Shown here piece after piece: positions 1 to 12,112 of a stretch of 12,112 nucleotides of DNA. Source of the DNA: a virus (taxonomy: Duplodnaviria > Heunggongvirae > Uroviricota > Caudoviricetes). The DNA is taken from the IMG/VR virus record IMGVR_UViG_640753024_000005. One strand, given 5' to 3'. Each line of letters starts with the position of its first letter. The stretch's first letter is position 1. The position numbers and the translations under genes were made by a program. The notes beneath the pieces are model-generated. The model was not told where the DNA came from, searched no databases, and worked only from the letters and a program-made list of their open reading frames with translations.

Positions 1-696
1 TCACTTAGGGTATGGCTGAACCCTGAATAGTTTGGTATTTAGCCGCTTCCTTGCTCGCTTGTTCAGGAATCTGATGTAGCGATACTGATTAAATTTGTGC
101 GCCACGGCACGCTCTTTATTAGCCCGTAAATACACGCCTCGTTGTCCACCCCGCTTAATCGCGTTCATCGTTATCTCGTGATACCACTCACCATCCAGCT
201 CGTAGAACGTGCTTTCATGGCTGCCAATAAAATCAAAATTCGACGCCTGATACACAACGCCTGCGCGTCCGCAGCGTTCGTCAGCAAATGACTGAACCCA
301 CTCCACTGACGGATACAGTAATCTGATAACTTTCAGCGCGTAGCTGATGGCCCGTGATTCAGAGTTGCGGGGCATGTCGTCGTGTAGCCACATGCGATTC
401 AACTCCATATAGCCCCGGTTATCCGTTTCAAGCACGACACGACGACCTGAGTTGGGGTTAAGGGCATATCCCCACTGGAGAACGCCAACCAGATCGCGTC
501 CGCTGAATACTCCCAGGTGGAGGTAAGAGTTATTCACAAAACGGCGGGAATAGTGCTTTGTCTGAATAATTGTGCGGGCCAGCCAGCAGGATATGGTTTC
601 AACGCGCAGTTCCTTTGAACCATAGCCAACAATCTGGCCTTCATACTCAATAACGCACGGTTTCGTCAGAATGCGTGATTTTTTCTCTTTTCCCAC
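1..696 (-). CDS. mom: Mom DNA-modification protein; proposed GTG start at 696-694 giving 231 aa (alternative upstream ATG at 726-724 gives the 241-aa ORF in the track)
   Basis: ORF-track protein recognised as Mu Mom from memory. It sits at the extreme right end next to com and gin, as in Mu. A GGAG (707-704) lies 7 nt upstream of the GTG. The 231-aa length matches my recollection of Mu Mom; start choice is uncertain. Confidence 0.85.
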
Positions 697-835
697 AATG
701 TTTCTCCGTGGGATGCTCGCAGGCATTCAGCATTATGATGTGACGTTTGCAACGCGGACACCTGATTTCAATGTGATCAAAGGAATCCGCCTTAAATAAC
801 AGTTTGTTGCAGTTTTTACAGCGAATTGATTTCAT
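647..835 (-). CDS. com: Com, zinc-finger translational activator of mom (62 aa)
   Basis: 62-aa ORF with a CxxC...CxxC arrangement (CKNC ... CPRC). Strong AGGAGG 4 nt upstream of the ATG. Its 3' end overlaps the mom 5' end by about 50-80 nt. Size and position match Mu com. Confidence 0.9.
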
Positions 836-946
836 CTCACCTCCTTTGCATCAATTCGCCACTATCTTAAAAAACATCGTGGGTTGAGTGTGGTTATTGG
901 GGCATAATCGATCTGTATTACCGATCGATTCAATTGATTCGATCGT
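836..946 (-). promoter_or_regulatory. mom operon promoter/regulatory region: three GATC (Dam) sites, T6 tract adjoining a TAAGAT -10-like hexamer
   Basis: GATC at 910-913, 923-926 and 941-944, spaced 13 and 18 bp, two within CGATCG palindromes. A6 run at 869-874 (T6 on the mom sense strand) abuts a TAAGAT hexamer (864-869 reverse complement). In Mu, Pmom is repressed by OxyR at unmethylated GATCs and activated by C protein. Exact -35 and C-site not resolvable by eye. Confidence 0.6.
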
Positions 947-1511
947 CGTTTTCTATATGCGTTCGTTTGGCGGGGTGTTTTTTATACAGCGTTGACAGGG
1001 CCACATCGTAGATCAATGCGACCTGCTTGCGGGGGATTCCTTGTGCTAATAAACGCCCGGCCTGCTCCCATTCCGCTTTGGTTAGTTTAGGTGGTCGCCC
1101 ACCGATACGGCCTTTATTTCTGGCAGCAGCAAGTCCAGCCATCGTTCTCTCGATGATTAGTTCTCGTTCCATCTCAGCCAGGGCACCCATAACGTGGAAG
1201 AAAAAACGCCCCATTGGAGATGACGTATCAATACTGTCAGTAAGACTGCGAAAATTAATCCCTCGCTCTCGTAATTCCCCTACGAGAGAAATCAAATGTT
1301 TCATGCTTCGCCCGAGGCGATCCAGTTTCCAGACAACCAGTGTGTCACCTTTTTGAAGACGCTTTAAAGCGCGTTTTAATCCAGGTCTGTCTGTCCTTGT
1401 TCCGCTTAATTTATCTTCAAATATTTGTTCACATCCTGCACAAACAAGAGCGTTTCGTTGCAGGTCTGTATTCTGGTCATTTGTTGATACCCTTACATAG
1501 CCAATCAGCAC
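930..1511 (-). CDS. gin: Gin serine DNA invertase (193 aa), GTG start with GGGAG Shine-Dalgarno
   Basis: Protein begins MLIGYVRVSTNDQ with the catalytic Ser of the resolvase/invertase family and has a C-terminal HTH region. It lies directly next to an invertible segment flanked by gix-like repeats. Start codon is GTG (1511-1509). Confidence 0.95.
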   Translation of the reverse strand: MLIGYVRVSTNDQNTDLQRNALVCAGCEQIFEDKLSGTRTDRPGLKRALKRLQKGDTLVVWKLDRLGRSMKHLISLVGELRERGINFRSLTDSIDTSSPMGRFFFHVMGALAEMERELIIERTMAGLAAARNKGRIGGRPPKLTKAEWEQAGRLLAQGIPRKQVALIYDVALSTLYKKHPAKRTHIENDDRIN

Positions 1512-1565
1512 TCTGGATCTCCCGTTTAAAAGCGCAAATCATGCCATGCAGGCCGGAAACAGCCA

Positions 1566-1599
1566 TTATCTAAAACCTCGGTTTACAGGAAACGGTAAA
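1566..1599. repeat. gix recombination site, right copy (34-bp inverted repeat; 26-bp core 1566-1591)
   Basis: ttatctaaaacctcggtttacaggaaacggtaaa equals the reverse complement of 4504-4537 at 33/34 positions. The core has the 12-2-12 architecture of Gin/Hin sites, with central dinucleotide at 1578-1579. Confidence 0.9.
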
Positions 1600-2530
1600 T
1601 CAGGCTTCTGGTGCGTTGCAGAAAAACCAGAATGGCGCAGATATTCCAAACAAAGATAAATTTACGCAAACAATAGGTGCTTGCCGCTCTTTTCATGGTG
1701 CTATTAGCACAGGTGCAGGAAACTGGACGACGGCACAATTGATTGAATGGCTGGATTCTCAAGGGGCATTCAATCACCCATACTGGATGTGCAAATGTTC
1801 ATGGTCATACGGCAATAATAAAATTATTACCGATACTGGCTGTGGAACTATTCATCTTGCAGGTTGCGTTATTGAGGTTATGGGTAATAAAGGAGCCATG
1901 ACCATCCGTGTAACCACCCCGAGCACTTCCAGCGGTGGCGGAATTACTAACGCTCAATTCACCTATATTAATCATGGTGATGCTTATGCTCCTGGCTGGC
2001 GACGAGACTACAACACGAAAAACCAGCAGTCTGCATTTGCTTTAGGGAAAACAGGAGGCACTGTCGGAAATGATAAAGCTGTTGGCTGGAACTGGAATAG
2101 CGGGGTCTATAACGCAAATATTGGTGGCGCAACGACATTAATCCTCCATTTCAATATGAGCGAGGGGAGTTGCCCTGCCGTACAGTTCCGTGTGAATTAT
2201 AAGAACGGCGGTATTTTTTATCGTTCAGCACGTGATGGTTATGGCTTTGAAGCTAACTGGTCAGAGTTTTACACCACAACACGCAAACCCTCTGCGGGAG
2301 ATGTTGGTGCATATACGCAGGCAGAATGTAACTCAAGGTTTATTACAGGTATTCGCCTTGGCGGTCTGTCATCTGTTCAGACATGGAATGGTCCTGGCTG
2401 GTCTGACAGGTCAGGTTATGTCGTTACAGGTTCAGTTAACGGAAACCGTGATGAATTAATTGATACAACTCAGGCAAGGCCAATTCAGTATTGCATTAAT
2501 GGAACGTGGTATAACGCGGGGAGTATTTAA
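1574..2530 (+). CDS. Sv', silent alternative variable part of tail fibre S (no start codon of its own in this orientation)
   Basis: Open frame begins right after the TAA at 1571-1573 inside gixR and runs to TAA at 2528-2530. C-terminus (NGNRDELIDTTQARPIQYCINGTWYNAGSI) is paralogous to the S C-terminus. The TTG start in the ORF track (1616) is not a real initiator. Confidence 0.7.
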   Translation, partial: NLGLQETVNQASGALQKNQNGADIPNKDKFTQTIGACRSFHGAISTGAGNWTTAQLIEWLDSQGAFNHPYWMCKCSWSYGNNKIITDTGCGTIHLAGCVIEVMGNKGAMTIRVTTPSTSSGGGITNAQFTYINHGDAYAPGWRRDYNTKNQQSAFALGKTGGTVGNDKAVGWNWNSGVYNANIGGATTLILHFNMSEGSCPAVQFRVNYKNGGIFYRSARDGYGFEANWSEFYTTTRKPSAGDVGAYTQAECNSRFITGIRLGGLSSVQTWNGPGWSDRSGYVVTGSVNGNRDELIDTTQARPIQYCINGTWYNAGSI

Positions 2531-2532
2531 TT

Positions 2533-2598
2533 ATGATGCACTTAAAAAATATTACTGCTGGCAACCCTAAAACAAAAGAGCAATACCAGCTAACGGAA
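2533..2598. repeat. Internal inverted repeat inside the G segment (U' 5' end), partner at 3557-3622
   Basis: First 66 nt of U' and U are 64/66 identical in inverted orientation. A further 23/24-nt identical block follows (about 2638-2661 versus about 3500-3522). Confidence 0.85.
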
Positions 2599-3066
2599 CG
2601 ATTTAACATCAAATGGCTTTATACAGAGGATGGGAAGAACTGGTATGAGGAACAAAAGAACTTTCAGCCTGATACGTTGAAAATGGTCTATGACCACAAC
2701 GACGTTATTATTTGTATTGAAAAGGATGTTTCAGCAATTAATCCAGAAGGCGCAAGCGTCGTTGAATTACCTGATATTACAGCAAATCGCCGGGCTGATA
2801 TTTCGGGTAAATGGATGTTCAAGGATGGCGTAGTGATAAAGCGAACTTACACCGAGGAAGAACAGAGGCAGCAGGCAGAGAATGAAAAGCAAAGCCTGTT
2901 GCAACTTGTCAGGGATAAAACCCAGTTATGGGACTCACAGCTACGGCTGGGCATCATTTCCGACGAGAATAAACAAAAATTAACAGAGTGGATGCTCTAT
3001 GCGCAGAAAGTCGAATCTACAGACACCTCCAGCCTGCCAGTAACGTTTCCAGAACAACCAGAATGA
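2533..3066 (+). CDS. U', silent alternative tail-fibre assembly protein (177 aa)
   Basis: Starts [22 protein letters not shown], identical to the N-terminus of U on the other strand. Conserved ANRRAD motif. GGGAG upstream of the ATG. Confidence 0.8.
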   Translation: MMHLKNITAGNPKTKEQYQLTERFNIKWLYTEDGKNWYEEQKNFQPDTLKMVYDHNDVIICIEKDVSAINPEGASVVELPDITANRRADISGKWMFKDGVVIKRTYTEEEQRQQAENEKQSLLQLVRDKTQLWDSQLRLGIISDENKQKLTEWMLYAQKVESTDTSSLPVTFPEQPE

Positions 3067-3094
3067 GACAAGGCCCGCTATCGGGCCTTAATTT

Positions 3095-3622
3095 TTATTC
3101 AGGCTTTTGTGGCCATTCAGGATTTGCCGTATCCACACGGCTGACCAGAACACTGTAGCGCTCCCATGCTTCCAGTCGGCTACGCTCCTCATCTGTTGCC
3201 ATGTTCAGCCTGACAGCGCGTTCCAGTGGCTGAATAACGCTTTCTGCTTCAGAAAGCAACGCGGCCTTTTGTGATTCGGCCTGTTGTTGCAGTTCCTGTT
3301 CTGTATATTCCCTCTTTACTACTTTACCATACAGAAACATCCATTTTCCGTTATTGTCTGCGCGACGATTTGCCGTAATATCAGGAACTTCAACTATGCT
3401 TAGCCCTTCAGGATTAATAGTTGAAACGTCTTTACTGACAGCAACGATGATGTTGTTCTCATCGTAAGCAATTTTTATGGTGTCTGGCTGAAAATTCTTT
3501 TGTTCCTCATACCAGTTTTTGCCATCTTCGCAAAAGAGCCATACCACGCCCGCTTTTTCAGTTAGCTGGTATTGTTCTTTTGTTTTAGGGTTGCCAGCAG
3601 TAATATTTTTTAAGTGCATCAT
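3095..3622 (-). CDS. U: U tail-fibre assembly protein (175 aa from the MMHLK start)
   Basis: Paralogue of U'. The ATG at 3622 lies 1 nt after the S stop (3624-3626). The 12 extra N-terminal residues in the track's 187-aa ORF overlap S and are not credited. Confidence 0.85.
3557..3622. repeat. Internal inverted repeat inside the G segment (U 5' end), partner at 2533-2598
   Basis: See partner entry. Confidence 0.85.
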
Positions 3623-3623
3623 C

Positions 3624-5033
3624 TTAAACACTCCCCACGTTGTACCATATTCCCCCAATCAATTTCTGAATTGGCCTTCTGGCAACAGTGTCGACAAGAT
3701 CATCCGCATTGCCGTTAATTGCGGCTGTTAAAACATAACCTGACGCATCGCCAAAGCCGTAGTCGCGCCATACGTTTTTATATTCAATGCTGCCAAGACG
3801 AATATCCCGAACGACATGATTATGCAGCCATGTGCTTAACCAGTTGTTTCCCCACACTGAACCATAAATATCGCCACTAGACGCAACTTGCGCACCACTT
3901 CCCAGCGCAAATCCCCCATCTGTTTTAAAAATGAAATCACCACCACCATCTGAACCGTTATTAATATGAACACCATCACCACCGTTATCTTTCCACAAAA
4001 ACATACGAATACTTCCGTCTTCGTTGGTGAATGTAATGTGGTGGCGGTAATTACTTTTTAATCTAAAAGCGCTGCAATTAGATTCAATATCTTTATAAAG
4101 ATGTAATCCTAACCCATCAATATGTCCGATGCGCGAACCATTTGAATAGAAGCTAATAATACCATCTCCATCTTGCCTAAATCCGGTGTCGTTATCTCCC
4201 AGAACAATGGAGTTTTCACCCAGTGCGTTATCAGTAGCACCAATAGCTAGACCTCCTTCAATTTTGGCCCCGTGGCTGACATATATAGCACCTGTTCTTA
4301 GATTTATAGCGAATGGCCTTAATGGGCCGATATCACCGTTTTCGCCTTGTCCTTCAGCCGTAGGGATGAAATGAAGGGACTCTTCTGAACGGCGGAAAAT
4401 AAGACCGAAGGCATCATTAAAAATTCGCAGCGCATTCATCGTTCCAATTTTCAGTTCTCCGGTCATTTTATCGCCGGAACGCTGAACGGCGTTACCAGCC
4501 TTGTTTACCGTTTCCTGTAAACCGAGGTTTTGGATAAACAGCGGCTTATTGGGAATATCTGCTCCGTTCCGGTCTTTTGCCAGACGGGCATTGGCATTAT
4601 CCATCGCAATTTTCACCGCTTTTGCGGTGGCTGCCAGCGTTTCACTGGGGCTGTCAGTGGCACTGGTTAGCTGAACGAGTCCTTTTTTGTTCAGGCTGGC
4701 ATCATAGATATCCAGATTTTCACGTGCTGTACGCTGTGCTGATGCCCCGGCAGTTTTAATTTCGCTGAGGTTATTTTTTATCAGCAGCGCGTTATTGCTC
4801 ATAATGGCTTTAATGGACAGTGCAAGCTGGTTTAATTTTGTTTTATCCGGTTGAATACCGGCTTCTTCCAGCGTGTTTAATAACTCCGCCTGCACAATAT
4901 TAAACCAGTCCATGCCGGGCCATGTGATAACATTATTCCCGTCACCTTCTGAAAACCAGCGAACGATAGCACTACGCTGGGCGGATACGGGCGGCATGAT
5001 GGTTACGCCGCTGTCGTTATCAATATAAAACAT
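3624..5033 (-). CDS. S: Tail fibre protein S (469 aa): constant part Sc (5033-4538), gix-encoded linker, variable part Sv (4503-3624)
   Basis: Long ORF crossing gixL in frame, with gly-rich fibre-like repeats in the variable part and a conserved C-terminal motif shared with Sv'. Its ATG overlaps the stop of the upstream gene (TAATG at 5035-5031). Confidence 0.9.
4504..4537. repeat. gix recombination site, left copy (34-bp inverted repeat; 26-bp core 4512-4537), embedded in the S reading frame
   Basis: Core ttcctgtaaaccgaggttttggataa with central GA at 4524-4525. In the S frame it encodes [12 protein letters not shown]. Confidence 0.9.
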
Positions 5034-5575
5034 TAGTTATCTCCGTCATGGTAAACAAATTTATAAATCTGATGCGCGGGTTTATATTTCTCCAGTAAAC
5101 ATTCCAGCGCACCCGATTCATAAACACGTAACGGCGTCAGAACATTATCCAGCACCGTTGCGTTGCGATAATTTTTAATACCGTAAATATTGACCTGCGT
5201 AACCCACTGGCCTTCTGTGGAATCCGTCAGCCTGACGGTAAAACCGTACTGCGCAGCCAGCCATTCATAAAAGCGCCGACTCAGATTGCCGGTCATACGC
5301 ATTTTATTCGCGGCAGCCCGCTGGCGTTCGGACAGGGTGCCGTTTTCGCTGGTACAGTCAGGCAACCCCAGAAATGATTCCCACTCCCCCAGATACCAGC
5401 GGGATGTGGACGGGAAACGCTCCCGCAGCATTTGCCGCGCATCATCCGCCGCAGCGGCAATCACGTCGCTGATGGCCTGCGCCAGCGCAGATAATTTGCT
5501 GTCGGGGCTTTTATTCCAGGCAAGCCCTGACGGCAGTAATTGCAGAAAGGCCGTCTGATAGGGTGTTACAGCCAT
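5033..5575 (-). CDS. R: Baseplate wedge protein, Mu gp48 equivalent (180 aa)
   Basis: Position immediately upstream of S and exact length match to Mu gp48. Overlaps the W stop by 10 nt. Assigned by synteny and size, not by a recognised motif. Confidence 0.75.
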   Translation of the reverse strand: MAVTPYQTAFLQLLPSGLAWNKSPDSKLSALAQAISDVIAAAADDARQMLRERFPSTSRWYLGEWESFLGLPDCTSENGTLSERQRAAANKMRMTGNLSRRFYEWLAAQYGFTVRLTDSTEGQWVTQVNIYGIKNYRNATVLDNVLTPLRVYESGALECLLEKYKPAHQIYKFVYHDGDN

Positions 5576-6648
5576 TCAATTGTCCCCGGTGTTAACAGTT
5601 CCGTATTCTCCGAACGCTGGATCTCTGTCGGGAAACGCACTTCAAAATCATCCAGACCGGTAACACCTGCCACCGCACGGATAATACGGGAGGGGGCAAG
5701 TGCGCCGCCCGGCGTCACCTCATTAAAAAACATGGTATTAATGGCGTGAGTAATAGCCTGTTTCAGTTCGGCTGTCTTCGGTGATATATAAATCCGTGGA
5801 TTTACCGGCTTTGCCTTTGCCGCAAATACCGTGACATTTACACCATCAGGCTGTCCGACAATCAGACCAGTGATCGGGTCAGTATGACCGGCGATATAAT
5901 CCGCCACGCGTTCCACGTCTGCCGGTTGTGGAAAAATATTGCTCCGGTTATCCATAACAAACGTCACCCCGACTGTGCCACCGCCTTTCCATGTCGGAAA
6001 ACACCAGGCACGGGTAACGCCGCTGACTTCACGCGCCCAGCGAACATAATCAAACTGATTACCGCCGAACGGAGGATACTGGACACGATATTCCAGCCGT
6101 GACAGCAGCTCCGCTGCACTCTCAATATCAGCCCCACCGGAAAACCCTTTTACAGTGATGGCATCGGAAACAACACAGGCAACCGGGGTGATCAACGTTA
6201 AAAGGGTATTCTCACCGGTATTTCCTGCCTCACCGGCAGCCAGTGCGGTAACGGTAATTTCCGTCGTTCCTGCACGGTCAATCACAATGGCATCAGCCAG
6301 GCTGTAAACCACACCATCAGCACGCTGCCAGCGTGTACCGGCAGGAATGGTGGTCGCTGCCGATGTGGTGACAGTCAGCGGGCCGCTGGCGGCTGTCGCC
6401 TGTTTGCGGCGCACGCCCCAGAACCGGCAGTGCTCCAGCAACTCATCTTCATCTGCTGTCGACGGGATAATCTGCCGTCCAACCCATGAAATATGCTCGT
6501 GACAACCGGCAGCAAGGCCCGCCTGAGCATAAGCAATGGCACTCAGCGTTTTTTCACGGGCCTGAGGCCAGCTACCCGGCAGGCGCTGTTCAATATTCTG
6601 TTCTGTACGGGCAATCAGCGATGATAATGTCGGTGGTGAATAAGCCAT
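5566..6648 (-). CDS. W: Baseplate protein, Mu gp47 equivalent (360 aa)
   Basis: Synteny and exact length match to Mu gp47. Directly abuts the preceding gene (6649/6648). Confidence 0.75.
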   Translation of the reverse strand: MAYSPPTLSSLIARTEQNIEQRLPGSWPQAREKTLSAIAYAQAGLAAGCHEHISWVGRQIIPSTADEDELLEHCRFWGVRRKQATAASGPLTVTTSAATTIPAGTRWQRADGVVYSLADAIVIDRAGTTEITVTALAAGEAGNTGENTLLTLITPVACVVSDAITVKGFSGGADIESAAELLSRLEYRVQYPPFGGNQFDYVRWAREVSGVTRAWCFPTWKGGGTVGVTFVMDNRSNIFPQPADVERVADYIAGHTDPITGLIVGQPDGVNVTVFAAKAKPVNPRIYISPKTAELKQAITHAINTMFFNEVTPGGALAPSRIIRAVAGVTGLDDFEVRFPTEIQRSENTELLTPGTIEWL

Positions 6649-7086
6649 TTAAACCCCGTTAAATGCTGCTTTAAACTCATAAGGAATAACGGAACCATCC
6701 GGTAATGTCAGTGCAATGTAGAGGTATAACCAGCCCTGATGTAACTGTTCCGCTCTGACGTTAATCGCACTTACCCGGCCCGCTGTTTTCAGCCATTCCA
6801 GCGCCTCTTCGGCATACCCTCTGGCGCGTTCCAGCGTATCCGGTGTGGCTTTTTCACGTGATAACAGCCACAACCGCGAACCGATGGGGCGGTCGCGGTA
6901 ACTGTCACCCCACCATCCACGGCGATCATCTGAACCATCCGGCAGCGTGTCAGAATCCAGCGCGCGCCGGTCTGTAAACAGGGAGATTGTCACATCGGTT
7001 GTCAGGCTGTCGTCGGTCAGCATGTCAATGCCATCCTGTGCAATATCGCCGCGTCCGTTCGTCCAGATAATGGCTAAATCGGTCAT
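6649..7086 (-). CDS. V: Baseplate protein, Mu gp46 equivalent (145 aa)
   Basis: Synteny and length. ATGA start/stop overlap with the upstream gene at 7086-7083. Confidence 0.75.
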   Translation of the reverse strand: MTDLAIIWTNGRGDIAQDGIDMLTDDSLTTDVTISLFTDRRALDSDTLPDGSDDRRGWWGDSYRDRPIGSRLWLLSREKATPDTLERARGYAEEALEWLKTAGRVSAINVRAEQLHQGWLYLYIALTLPDGSVIPYEFKAAFNGV

Positions 7087-7676
7087 TGCATTGGCCCCGT
7101 GGTTCCGCCGCTGTCGCCACGGTGGATATGCTTATCCGTCGATTTGCCATTGATGATGGCATCCGGGGCAGTAATATTGCTGTCGAACTGGCTTTTACCT
7201 TTAACGCCCAGACCTTTCTGGATCTCAACGTCGCCGGTAAACGTGGTTCTGGGTGTGTCAACGGTCATACTTTCATCAGCGTAAACCTCAACCGTTTTAC
7301 AGGTAATGATGCAGCGTCCGTCCTTTGTCAGCCGGATACGATGCCCCTCATGGTGGTAAATGCCTGCATCACCCGGTTCAAGATTTGTCGGGCGGTAGCG
7401 GCGGTCTTCCACCACAACGGCGATCCCCTGATCACGTTGTGCACCCACACAGGCAATCAGCGCCTCTGCGCCCGGCAGGGGAACGCTGAAATGTCCGTAA
7501 TTTTGCAGGCGCTCCACTTCATCGGATTCCTCATCATCCAGCAGACCGACCTGCAGGTTCTGAACCTTTCGCCCGTCGTTAATCACGTTAACAACAGCGC
7601 GCGCAAGCATCAGGCGCACACGACGCATCAGCGGCGTCAGCAGGCGGTTCAGGGCGGAATCATTTACTCTTTCCAC
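7083..7676 (-). CDS. Q: Baseplate central spike, Mu gp45 equivalent (197 aa)
   Basis: Synteny and length. His-rich C-terminal tip (KHIHRGDSGGTTGPMQ) fits a metal-binding spike apex. Overlaps the P stop by 13 nt. Confidence 0.75.
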   Translation of the reverse strand: MERVNDSALNRLLTPLMRRVRLMLARAVVNVINDGRKVQNLQVGLLDDEESDEVERLQNYGHFSVPLPGAEALIACVGAQRDQGIAVVVEDRRYRPTNLEPGDAGIYHHEGHRIRLTKDGRCIITCKTVEVYADESMTVDTPRTTFTGDVEIQKGLGVKGKSQFDSNITAPDAIINGKSTDKHIHRGDSGGTTGPMQ

Positions 7677-8803
7677 GGCGGCGTTTTCTCCGGGTGTCTG
7701 CGATAATAATCTTCAACCAGCGCATCAATACCGCCGTTACTGTCGCCGCCTTTCCTGTTTTTACGGTCGCTTTCAACCGGCACCAGAAAGCCTTCGCGTG
7801 GTGCAAGGCTGACGCGGGTTTTCAGCCCGTCCTGGTCATTCAGTATCAGGGTGACTTTGCTGGCCAGTAATTCCGTGGTTTTGATGGCATATTTCGAGGC
7901 ATCAATAGTGACCAGCAGGTTCGGCATCCAGAGTTGCCCGTCCTTGCGAGTCCATCCGTCAATTTCAGCCTCAAAGGTGATGGATTTTGCCAGTCTGCGG
8001 CGTTGCTCACGCAGGGCGCGGGCCTGTGCATCCTTCGCCGTAATTTTGCTGTCGGCAATGATGATCATCGGTCTGTAACGGGTCACATCACTGTCAGTGG
8101 CGGTCCCTTTCCGGGAGACGATACTTTTCGCATCAATATCATCACCCTCAGCACCGTTTGCGCGGGCATACCCCTTGACGGTGTATTCGCTGAACCGGTC
8201 GCGGAAGTCTTCCTCAAAATCCAGTGTCAGCAGATTTTCTCCGAGAACCAGCTCATCAGTGGCTGTGCTGGCAGCCCGGCTGAATACCAGCTCTCCGGCG
8301 GCATTGCTGGTCATCAGTACACCGCGTGCGCGGGAGGCACGCACCAGCGCCTCATAAACGGTTTCTGAATGGTCCAGCGTGAAGCCGGGAAAAGCTGCCG
8401 AACTTTCCTTATCGGAAAGCTCCCAGCGAACGGTAACGCCATAAGGGGTGCACAGGTCACGCGCAATCTGCTCCAGTGTGCGGTTTTTCCACTGTCCGCC
8501 ACTGTAAACGGCAGCACAGTCAATCAGGTCAGCCGTTTTGTCACGTCCGGCGACAGTGATTTTCATACTGTCAGCGGTCATCTGGCGTCGCCGTGAATCG
8601 ATATAACCGGTGCAGACAATCTGCCCCCCGATTTCGAGCGTGAACGCCTTCCCCGGTGCCAGCCCGGATAAATCCGTGCCCGGTGGCACGTTCACCCCCA
8701 GCTCAAAATATCCGGCTACGGATTCAATGGAGCGGGTGACAGAGACTGACGTCCAGCCGGTAAAAAGCCTGCCATCCGTTCGCAGCGTGACGGTATTACT
8801 CAT
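7664..8803 (-). CDS. P: Baseplate hub protein, Mu gp44 equivalent (379 aa)
   Basis: Synteny and exact length match to Mu gp44. ATG at 8803-8801 preceded by GAGGTG and overlapping the stop of the B'-remnant fusion ORF. Confidence 0.75.
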   Translation of the reverse strand: MSNTVTLRTDGRLFTGWTSVSVTRSIESVAGYFELGVNVPPGTDLSGLAPGKAFTLEIGGQIVCTGYIDSRRRQMTADSMKITVAGRDKTADLIDCAAVYSGGQWKNRTLEQIARDLCTPYGVTVRWELSDKESSAAFPGFTLDHSETVYEALVRASRARGVLMTSNAAGELVFSRAASTATDELVLGENLLTLDFEEDFRDRFSEYTVKGYARANGAEGDDIDAKSIVSRKGTATDSDVTRYRPMIIIADSKITAKDAQARALREQRRRLAKSITFEAEIDGWTRKDGQLWMPNLLVTIDASKYAIKTTELLASKVTLILNDQDGLKTRVSLAPREGFLVPVESDRKNRKGGDSNGGIDALVEDYYRRHPEKTPPWKE

Positions 8804-9146
8804 TAATCACCTCAATACTGACACCACCGGGAACAAACAACGGGTTGCCACATACAACAGCAATACTTTCAGTCAGGCTGGCAAAACGCATACTTGTCCA
8901 GATTTGTTTTACCGTCTGCGTTTCCACAAAGCGGGGCGGTTCAGGTAGTTCTGCAACTGCATGATATTTTTCCAGCCAGCGTTGCAGCATTTGTGAAACA
9001 CGCTCGTTATCCCCGTTGTACTTATCATTGATAAAACTACTGATAGTTCCGGTAGAAAGTCCGCTCTCAAGAGCAATTTGTTTAAAGGTGGTTTCTTCAT
9101 TTTCTACAAGCGTGCGCAGTCCTGCGCGAATATCGGAAATATTCAT
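8796..9146 (-). pseudogene. B: Truncated B (target-DNA activator, AAA+ ATPase): residues 1-102 retained, fused in frame to a 14-codon remnant (LFVPGGVSIEVINE) that I infer to be the 3' end of gene N
   Basis: ORF starts MNISDIRAGLRTLVENEETTFKQIALESGL, recognised as the Mu B N-terminal domain from memory. Homology stops at ...VVCGNP (8849-8841), exactly where Walker A (GNPGVGKT) should continue. The ORF ends 14 codons later, overlapping the P start. Confidence 0.85.
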
Positions 9147-9184
9147 CTGAATAACCTCGTAATTAAATTTTGTTTAAACGTTAA

Positions 9185-11173
9185 TTAAATGGCTTTTTTA
9201 CGTCTGTTCTGTTCCAGAATATCCAGCGAATGATTCAGATATTCATCACGCTCAGTTTCGTATTCATCATCACGCTCCTGATTCTTCACCCGTTCCGTAT
9301 TACCGGAAGGCCGGAAAATGCCGACAATTCGTGATTCTGGTGCTTCAGGTTCGGCTATCTGCGGCAGCAGCTCTGCCACTTCCAGTGCATCCATTTGTTT
9401 TTGTGCCTTAATCGCTGCTTTCGTCGCAGATTTCAGTTGTTTCTGGCGGCGGCGATATTCACGGCCTGCCGCAGCATCATTAAACGCAACAGGTGCCAGA
9501 CATTCCGCTTCACAGATAAACCGACCGTCCAGGGTGTAGCAATAAACCGTGCTGTGTAACTGCTGTGGATCAAATCTGACCACAACTTTTTTCACTCCGG
9601 CATTCATTAACGCCATGTTGTAATAAACGTTTTTCGCACCTTTAAGGGAGCCGCCAACTTTAAGCGCGAACTCGCCTTTACGTGAAACGTTCACCGCCTC
9701 GGCAGGCAGTAACAGCATCCGTTTTTGCTCTTCGGTAGGCTTACGCACAATCGTTCTGGCGTATTCACGCTCAAAAACGTCATCAAACGAAAGTTTGCCT
9801 CCGCACATTTCTGTTTCACGGCCTGTTCTGGCATTGAACATCGCCACACCTTCGGCAAGGGTTTTCAGAAACAGCTCTGCATCAACAGCGCGGTCGCCAT
9901 AGTTATCAGGTTTTGCCTGCGGATTTGGCCCCGTATATGCGCCAGCCAGTGCCGGATGCTTATCAACGTATTCCTCAAGCCCACCAACACCGAAAGCACG
10001 TTCAACAGGTTTTGCCTGGCCCCAGCCTTTACCGGCAACAACGCTTGTCCAGTGCATTTTCGCGCCCATCAGTAAAAACAGTCCCTTTGGATCGTCCTCT
10101 TTTACCTTAAAGCGGTAACGATTGGGCGCGCCCCCCGTCAGCCATTTATTCGCTGCACCACGGGTGTTATCAATGGTGATGTGAAAATCCTCCGGGATGC
10201 CGTAGCGTGTCACCACATCCATAAACGAGAGGCGAATTGAGTCGATGTTCTCGCTTACATCGCAGCGCCAGCCCAGAATTTTTCGGGTTTTCACATCCTG
10301 CCAGAACCATGTTTTCGGGCGGATCACATCACCGTTAAACCAGCGTACAAAGACGTTATGCAGATAACCGTCGCCGTTGATCCACTGCATGGCGTCCAGG
10401 TGTTCCACAGTTCGCTGCTGTGCCGGTATCAGATGCATCAGTGCATGTTCACCTTCACGACAGGCAACAACCATTGCCTCGTCCAGTTGCTGAATCCGGC
10501 GAAAGGCCGTGGCACGGGAGGGAATACTCCAGCCATGCTCGCGGGCTGCCAGTTCCAGACGCTCATAACATTTGCGGAAGGCGGGCTTTTCCGGTCGCAG
10601 ATAATCTGCAATCAGAAACTGCCAGGCATCCTCGTCAAATTCACTTTTGTGAACGTTGCGACGGGATGCACCACGTCCATCAACAAGCGCAGCCGCCCAG
10701 TCAGGCTTCGCAAACTTCTGTACCTGGTAATACTTGTCCCGCAAAGTGGATGCGCTGACCTGGTAATGCCCAGCAACGGTCGCAAAAGCCGTTTTTGTTG
10801 AAATCCCCTGGTTCAGCATTTCGTCTGCAGCCTGAACCGCAGGCAACCATTTTTCAGCAAGTCTGCGCTGGGAATCGCTGGCGTTATCCCATTTGCTCCA
10901 CAGTGCCTCACGATCATAATCATGGGCTTCCAGCGTGGGGCGGGCGATTTCAAAATACCCCTGACTTGTTTCAATTCTCCCTTGTTGCAACAGAATTTCA
11001 GCACGTAATGCGACAGGGAATGATTTGATATTGAATTCAAATGATACACCTTTAGTCCCTGCAACCTGCCTGAACTCCCAGCCTTCTCTTTGTGCCTTAC
11101 GTGTAATGTTAGTGGCTTGCTTTGGTAAACCTGCCAAACCGAGCAACTCTTTTGCTGTATACCATTCTTTCAT
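9185..11173 (-). CDS. A: DDE transposase A (662 aa), apparently intact
   Basis: Recognised from memory as near-identical to MuA from about residue 65 onward. Catalytic DDE contexts present ([40 protein letters not shown]). N-terminal 60-65 residues differ from MuA as recalled and resemble the c repressor N-terminus. Confidence 0.95.
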
Positions 11174-11180
11174 AGCGCAC

Positions 11181-11402
11181 CTAGTATCGAGACGGCCAAA
11201 TATCTTGCGGTGTCATTCCCAGTGCATCTGCAATGATTTTCTCCGCTTTCGGATATCTCTTATCCAAAGCATTTTTCAATGTTGAAGACGAAAGATGATT
11301 AGATCTTCCCAATTCAGCTAGTGACATATTGCGTTTTCGTAGCTCTGCAACGATGTCAGCTCTGTGCCAATCTTGGCGGTTAGTTCTTTTATTCATATGC
11401 AT
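11181..11402 (-). CDS. ner: Ner-family early regulator (73 aa; possible start at the third Met, 11396)
   Basis: Small basic HTH protein with the DWHRADI...LSSSTL...IWPSRY signature shared by phage Ner and E. coli Nlp. Sits between the operator region and A. Looks D108-type rather than Mu-type from memory. Confidence 0.85.
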
Positions 11403-11587
11403 TTCATGTAATCCTTTCAGATTCCCCCGTGAGCTACGCTATAAAGTAGCTCACGGCATATCGTGCAATGTAGTGTGGAATCACTCTCAAATCAATAGGG
11501 ATTTGAAAGGATTTGCCATGATTTCATATAACGGCATGATTTTTATATGAATTTATTTTGTCTCTATTGAAATCACTAGGATTTTAA
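11403..11587. promoter_or_regulatory. Divergent early (Pe, leftward) and repressor (Pc, rightward) promoter/operator region
   Basis: 185-bp AT-rich intergenic region between divergent ner and c. Candidate leftward elements: TTGCAC (11463-11468 rc), 17 bp, TTTATA (11440-11445 rc), or TTGATT/TACATT further upstream. Candidate rightward elements: TTGAAA (11503-11508), 18 bp, TATAAC (11527-11532). All weak matches, unverified. Confidence 0.5.
11427..11456. promoter_or_regulatory. Perfect inverted repeat, likely Ner operator: ccgtgagctac - 8 bp (gctataaa) - gtagctcacgg
   Basis: 11-bp arms at 11427-11437 and 11446-11456 are exact reverse complements with an AT-rich 8-bp spacer, 25 bp upstream of the ner start. 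Matches my recollection that D108 Ner binds 11-bp inverted repeats. Confidence 0.6.
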
Positions 11588-12112
11588 ATGATGTCTTTTG
11601 AAATCAAAGAATGGTTTAATGCGAAAGAGCTGGAAGGGATGCCTGGTGTACCAAAGTTGGCGACTAACATTACCAGGAAAGCTGTGGCGGAAGATTGGGT
11701 AAAACGTCAGCGTCACGGTGGGAAAGGTGTCGCTTATGAGTATCACATCAACAGTCTGCCAGAAGAAACACGCAGGGCCATTAAAGGTGCCTCACTTTCT
11801 GATAAACCAGTGCATACATCAATCGCCCATACAGTTGATGAGAGGCTAATTTATGCAATGAGCTTTTTAACACCAGATGAGCAGGCCGCAGCTGTGGAGA
11901 TCATTCGTGTAGCAGGGATTAAAGGACTTATGCCTACAATTGTCAGTAAAGATAAGGCATTAGAGGCATTAGGGATTACTGTGGAGCAACAGAAAACCCT
12001 GCAAACTCTTCAAGCATTACCACCGGAAAAAGTAAGAGAGATTTTGTCTCAGTATGAAGGCAAAGAACATAATTTCCCTGTAAGAGAAAACGATGTAAAG
12101 AAAGCTGTATAA
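11588..12112 (+). CDS. c: c repressor (174 aa), immunity repressor of the transposable phage
   Basis: Divergent from ner-A across the operator region. Its N-terminal region is about 50% identical to the A N-terminal domain (shared [16 protein letters not shown]), the known repressor/transposase paralogy in Mu-like phages. Confidence 0.8.
   Translation: MMSFEIKEWFNAKELEGMPGVPKLATNITRKAVAEDWVKRQRHGGKGVAYEYHINSLPEETRRAIKGASLSDKPVHTSIAHTVDERLIYAMSFLTPDEQAAAVEIIRVAGIKGLMPTIVSKDKALEALGITVEQQKTLQTLQALPPEKVREILSQYEGKEHNFPVRENDVKKAV

Follow-up and report, generated by a model that had tools for sequence, protein, structure and literature searches.

An intact mom promoter without its activator gene in a Mu/D108-like prophage remnant of Escherichia coli E24377A

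The element at ssuA and its gene content

The stretch of DNA analysed here, called the window throughout, comprises the 12,112 nucleotides of IMG/VR record IMGVR_UViG_640753024_000005 and is oriented opposite to the standard Mu map. Its source is CP000800.1, the chromosome of enterotoxigenic E. coli E24377A. The full element extends beyond the window by about 340 bp on the left and 115 bp on the right; it measures 12,566 bp (positions 6696-19261 of genomic locus L004) and lies in ssuA, near the 3' end of that gene. Both Mu ends are intact, with the Mu-type terminal sequences TGTATTGATTCAC... and ...GCCGCTTCA. As read in the genomic locus, the element begins TGTATTGATTCACTTGAAG and finishes ...CGTGCGCCGCTTCA, and a 5-bp target duplication, GCCGA, is present on both sides of it. 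As a result of the insertion ssuA is truncated and no longer adjoins ssuD.

A "Mu" element at ssuA of E24377A already appears in the catalogue of Archer et al. 2011 (PMC3032704, Additional file 4). It is the only Mu entry for the strain in that catalogue, the other elements being lambda-like, P2-like or integrative. In the size table of the same file a 12,620-bp ssuD-ssuA entry is printed on the row of strain W, apparently as a result of a column shift.

The genes and regulatory features are collected in Table 1. What remains of the Mu gene complement is c, ner, A, a truncated B (B'), the baseplate and tail-fibre genes P to U, gin, the mom promoter (Pmom), com and mom. The Mom protein shares 229 of its 231 residues with Mu Mom. 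The element has a mosaic composition: the leftmost 1.1 kb in Mu orientation, containing ner, the operators and c, is 98.6% identical to D108 rather than to Mu, and the D108-type immunity region (N-terminus of A, ner and c; 10985-12112) matches D108 at 98.6% and the prophage in strain FDAARGOS_1058 at 99.9%. The right arm (1-8848) is closest to SfMu and Yersinia Mu-like phages, at about 98%. Judged by its sequence, the window is part of a defective Mu/D108-like transposable prophage remnant.

Table 1. Features of the window, with one related remnant from another genome. Positions are those of the window unless an accession is given; promoter positions in parentheses or remarks are relative to the mom start site.
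Feature	Position	Strand	Remarks
mom	1-726	-	Intact ORF; Mu-annotated start at 696; Pfam Mom match
com (62 aa, translational activator of mom)	647-835	-	100% identical to Mu Com; Pfam Zn_ribbon_Com
Pmom regulatory region	836-946	-	Runs from the base preceding the com start codon to the third GATC
-10 hexamer TAAGAT (-12 to -7)	864-869	-	Read from the sequence
T6 run (-17 to -12)	869-874	-	AAAAAA on the plus strand; intact; T at -14 (window 871)
Polymorphism at -22	879	-	C here, T in Mu
-35-like hexamer ACCACA (-37 to -32)	889-894	-	19-bp spacer to the -10
C-binding palindrome TTATgccccaATAA	894-907		TTATN6ATAA; centre -43.5; overlaps the -35 region; same as in Mu
Three Dam GATC sites	910-913, 923-926, 941-944		-56/-53, -69/-66, -87/-84; Dam/OxyR control region
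gin (G-segment invertase, 193 aa)	930-1511	-	Pfam Resolvase; stop TGA (TAA in Mu)
GC-rich hairpin, centre of the G segment, between convergent U and U'	3070-3089		-21.9 kcal/mol, z = -3.4
P (the tail-fibre and baseplate genes extend from the G segment to P)	7664-8803	-	
Deletion junction	8842-8848		Mu 3662 joined to 27643 (direct BLAST against Mu); about 24 kb lost (Mu 3663-27642)
B'-N' fusion ORF (116 aa)	8796-9146	-	MuB 1-101 plus the last 14 residues of N
Transposase A (662 aa)	9185-11173	-	Intact
ner	11181-11402	-	Operator/Pe region adjoins
D108-type repressor c	11588-12112	+	
Remnant in strain N61	NZ_AP028880.1 4065341-4069826 (locus L023 10978-15463)		c-ner-(deletion)-U'/S'-gin-Pmom-com-mom plus one unknown ORF

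The mom promoter and its natural variants

Pmom lies between gin and the overlapping com-mom pair, at the right end of the Mu-like element. Promoter numbering was anchored on the tin7 mutation at -14 (PMC3378877), whose oligonucleotide, ...gatgtttgttaagat..., is given in PMC4461284; this places +1 at window 857. As in wild-type Mu, gin ends 73 bp ahead of the mom start site and no terminator separates it from com.

The first-pass annotation, made from the letters of the window, had recognised the promoter by three GATC sites within 35 bp (910-944) and by a T6 run abutting a TAAGAT hexamer. The three sites are present, as are the run and the hexamer. The latter two do not abut, since they overlap by one base, the last T of the run being the first base of the hexamer. 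The minus strand reads GATGTTTTTTAAGATAGTGG across the T6 run and the -10, and ...GATCGAATCAATTGAATCGATCGGTAATACAGATCGATTATGCCCCAATAACCACACTCAACCCACGATGTTTTTTAAGATAGTGGCGAATTGATGCAAAGGAGGTGAGATG over a longer part of the region.

Taken alone, these motifs are weakly significant. With the 24 GATC sites of the window placed uniformly, three sites in 35 bp have a probability of about 0.036, which is mildly unusual. The palindrome TTATN6ATAA occurs once in the whole window, at 894-907; it is expected 0.18 times and appeared at least once in 34 of 200 shuffles, which is not significant. GATC is rare across the window as a whole, with 24 sites where 39 are expected (a count of 24 or more was reached in 199 of 200 shuffles), and because of this scarcity the three-site cluster at Pmom stands out more. 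The decisive evidence for the identity of the promoter comes instead from its homology to the experimentally characterised promoter of Mu.

That comparison used AF083977, both its promoter feature 35693-35759, annotated as a late promoter, and the GATC region upstream. Across window 836-946, 109 of 111 bases match Mu, which identifies the region as the Mu mom promoter, and the only two differences fall at window 879 and 931. The T tract and the C-binding site are unchanged. A 501-bp stretch around Pmom shows 98.6% identity to Mu and 99.0% to SfMu. The two promoters share their position between gin and com, the -10, the T6 run, the -35, the 19-bp spacer, the C palindrome, all three GATC sites and the com ribosome-binding site, and com itself is identical. 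They differ in having C for T at -22 and G for A at -74 in E24377A, and in the context of the promoter, because the cognate activator C, and mor, which turns C on, are missing from the E24377A element.

The base at -22 is within the spacer, outside both the C site and the T6 run. Position -74 (window 931) is the second nucleotide of the gin stop codon (930-932), which sits between the second and third GATC sites and is changed from TAA to TGA. Both differences are natural standing variants of working phages and intact prophages. C at -22 is shared with SfMu, vB_YpM_3 and Mu_3F6, all isolated as phages, which vary at -74/-75. Among the IMG/VR contigs matching the core promoter, six of nine have C at -22 and two of nine have the TGA allele. 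Seven complete E. coli genomes contain window 640-960, 321 bp with com and the promoter, at 100% identity, and in each of them a Mu-type C gene lies 25.1-25.5 kb from the identical com-Pmom stretch. These intact prophages (e.g. those of Z0117EC0036, E148 and 21KM1392) and the phages with C at -22 are full length, with C located some 25.4 kb leftward of mom, whereas the E24377A element is 12.6 kb long and lacks C. The possibility that C at -22 is itself a tin-like change was rejected, as the allele is common in working phages. Compared with Mu and with the tin7 sequence, the window promoter shows no tin7-type T to G change at -14, no extended -10 and no break in the T6 run. It has its backbone in common with Ptin7, which has G at -14 (PMC3378877, PMC4461284) where the window keeps T.

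The internal deletion and the occurrence of orphaned promoters

Megablast against phages aligned window 1-8848 with Mu 36602-27643, and window 8845-10985 with the A/B region of Mu. At the junction between these two blocks the end-points share 4-7 bp of microhomology, GG[G/A]TTGC, which is typical of illegitimate recombination. B is cut at codon 101, inside its Walker A motif GNPGVGKT, and continues in frame into the last 14 codons of N; the resulting ORF stops at N's own stop codon, overlapping the start of P. The structure results from a single illegitimate-recombination event that removed about 24 kb, from codon 101 of B to 14 codons before the end of N.

The lost interval includes mor (Mu 8781-9170), C (9963-10385), the late promoters Plys (10403-10469) and PP (27287-27353), and PI in the head-gene region, together with the lysis, head and tail genes through N. 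The location of C in the deleted segment, proposed from the letters of the window, is thus confirmed by alignment. Also lost are the early-region terminators that the Mu annotation places at 7839-7873 and 9179-9200. The baseplate and tail-fibre genes from P to U have lost PP and now stand downstream of Pe, with no annotated terminator between.

Searches by tblastn with Mu C and Mor as queries found no homologue of either in the window or in the surrounding 20-kb locus, the best match having a chance-level E value of 0.84. The statement that the window holds no C gene agrees with this result, and the C homologue elsewhere in the element that would have argued against an orphaned promoter was not detected in the same searches. 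Both halves of the orphan interpretation, a promoter with its architecture retained and an activator that is missing, are supported by these comparisons.

An assembly artefact was considered as the source of the junction and rejected. The same junction occurs in an independent Logan assembly, SRR9425412, and the B'-N' fusion protein has an exact match in both CP000800.1 and SRR9425412, the latter on a 10.9-kb contig with 0 mismatches. The in-frame fusion at a microhomology and the independently reported size of the element also oppose an artefact. The junction is absent from 5,426 complete E. coli genomes (a set that does not include E24377A) and from species-representative genomes.

A Pmom-com region is found in 45 complete E. 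coli genomes, of which 41 have a Mu-type C gene. Among the four without a megablast match to Mu C, strains SE11, TUM9757 and PEC422 were candidates for further orphans and were rejected, as each carries a diverged C, 75% identical to Mu C, at the expected place. This brings the number with a Mor/C-family gene at the expected place to 44 of 45. The elements of these three strains (loci L019, L021 and L022) are full-length Mu-like prophages in which mor and C are separated by an additional GH108 lysozyme-like gene, and their Pmom-com regions are about 98% identical to the window, C-binding palindrome included.

The one genome of the 45 without a Mor/C-family gene is that of strain N61. Its remnant (Table 1) lacks A, B, mor and C and lies beside the hsdS/symE/mcrBC restriction cluster and yjiT. 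Like the E24377A element, it is internally deleted, keeps c-ner and gin-Pmom-com-mom, and has no C. Unlike it, the N61 remnant has an independent and much larger deletion, joining ner to U'/S' of the G segment with loss of A, a different insertion site, and an unchanged Mu-type Pmom allele with T at -22 and A at -74. Orphaning of Pmom is, on this survey, rare and recurrent, and due to independent internal deletions.

Expression of com-mom in the absence of C

On the Mu promoter, binding of RNA polymerase depends on C, which untwists the DNA, recruits the polymerase and afterwards promotes promoter clearance (PMC4461284); the -35 is poor and the spacing suboptimal (PMC3378877). The tin7 mutation, T to G at -14, creates an extended -10 and leads to C-independence (PMC3378877, PMC4461284). 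Methylation of the upstream GATC sites by Dam keeps OxyR from repressing the promoter, Fis is a further repressor of Pmom, Com is required for mom translation, and untimely Mom is toxic (PMC3378877, PMC2909390). Mom is a Gly-tRNA(Gly)-dependent adenine-modifying enzyme (PMC13219725).

Because the sequence is the same as that of the Mu promoter, we infer that the requirement for C carries over to the window promoter, and likewise the binding of OxyR to unmethylated or hemimethylated Pmom only. The 19-bp spacer and the T6 run would put the -35 and -10 out of phase, so that polymerase could not occupy this poor pair of hexamers. A C dimer would bind TTATN6ATAA at -43.5, untwist the DNA and recruit polymerase. 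OxyR would repress when the three upstream GATC sites are unmethylated, with Fis adding to the repression, and Com made from the common transcript would be needed for translation of mom.

The reading we favour, with a probability of about 0.8, is that 836-946 is a canonical C-dependent Pmom which lost its activator through the internal deletion and was itself left unchanged, so that mom is silent without C. The orphan state is a direct outcome of the deletion, and the promoter shows no adaptation to it; its sequence is untouched and carries no compensating change. As the element encodes neither mor nor C, Pmom is expected to remain off even once the prophage is derepressed, and to fire only when C is provided in trans by a superinfecting or resident Mu-like phage. 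The expectation of the first-pass annotation, that the potentially toxic mom function should be silent unless C comes from elsewhere, is therefore retained as a prediction, and com-mom of E24377A is very probably unexpressed.

No repressed Mu lysogen makes C either, and a contrast between the orphan and a normal prophage would therefore show only upon derepression or superinfection.

A different route to Mom expression would bypass Pmom. Transcription from a derepressed Pe might read through ner, A, B'-N' and the P to S-U genes and, in part, onwards through the G segment and gin into com-mom, which would make Mom C-independent and place it under control of the repressor. The deletion took both early-region terminators and PP, and B' runs in frame to the N stop overlapping the P start, which would give continuous translation and make Rho polarity unlikely. 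A terminator scan from 11,400 to 836 found only weak candidates on the minus strand, and the strong, perfect hairpin in the middle of the G segment has its T-run on the window plus strand only. With the early terminators gone and no convincing rightward intrinsic terminator between Pe and com, C-independent read-through is possible; with B' fused to the P operon as well, derepressed Pe should transcribe the baseplate and tail-fibre genes, and possibly further. Against this, the read-through required is about 10 kb long. A moderately U-rich stretch comes after the hairpin, which may still act as a terminator and is the sole strong candidate for a block to rightward transcription towards gin-com-mom. 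Inverted U'/S' would be transcribed antisense, untranslated and open to Rho, and at Pmom itself bound OxyR or Fis may block the polymerase. From PP onwards the arrangement is that of wild-type Mu, in which mom nevertheless has its own C-dependent transcript (PMC4461284). We consider this route improbable, and read-through into com-mom at a substantial level unlikely. With a T-run on one side only, the hairpin should terminate rightward transcription more or less strongly according to how the G segment is oriented.

Alternatively, C, or a cross-reacting activator of the Mor/C family, might be supplied by another element resident in E24377A. Some E. coli plasmids and other Mu-like prophages carry Mor/C-family genes, and the coexistence of the diverged C of SE11, TUM9757 and PEC422 with a Pmom so close to that of the window suggests some tolerance in activator sequence. 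The search for C elsewhere in E24377A drew on the published catalogue (PMC3032704), which lists no second Mu element for the strain, and on tblastn against plasmids, where none from E24377A was among the matches listed (30 of 32). Such a gene, if present, would be expressed only in the lytic cycle of its own element, and we regard a resident source of activator as very unlikely.

The last alternative, that after loss of its activator the promoter decayed or gained a tin-like C-independence, could appeal to the two bases that differ from Mu but is almost certainly wrong and is refuted at the sequence level, since those bases are standing polymorphisms (the one at -74 being the gin stop codon change), the allele is kept over the whole 321 bp in seven C-carrying prophages, and -14, the T6 run, both hexamers, the spacer and the C site are unchanged.

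On the preferred reading, a canonical Pmom stranded by deletion, the promoter is a textbook one, the element is catalogued, and the process is ordinary prophage decay. The case is an example of one internal deletion cutting off a potentially toxic gene under tight control from the activator that it needs. In annotation terms, com-mom of E24377A would be assigned to a defective 12.6-kb Mu/D108-like remnant and not to an active phage. The remnant might serve as a natural test bed, both for Pmom without C in a wild (non-K-12) host and for Mom produced by read-through.

A more speculative idea, and a distinctly long shot, is that Mu remnants keeping c-ner and gin-Pmom-com-mom are retained or rewired modules and not neutral debris, serving either as a Pe-driven com-mom unit or as a cassette that can be activated in trans. 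Two independent remnants bear on it, that of E24377A and that of N61 beside the hsd/mcr restriction locus. If it were true in the first form, Pe-driven com-mom would provide C-independent, stress-inducible hypermodification of host DNA with N6-carbamoylmethyl-adenine; in the second, a silent Pmom-com-mom cassette would fire on superinfection by a Mu-like phage.

As the E24377A element keeps c, ner, A and both ends, it is effectively a natural A+ B- mini-Mu and might still transpose at low frequency. Laboratory mini-Mu and deletion derivatives resemble it in the retention of both ends, c, ner and A, in the loss of internal late genes, and in the 5-bp duplication. The E24377A element differs from them in being natural, 95-99% and not 100% identical to Mu, of D108-type immunity and without a marker gene, with its deletion end-points at a short microhomology.
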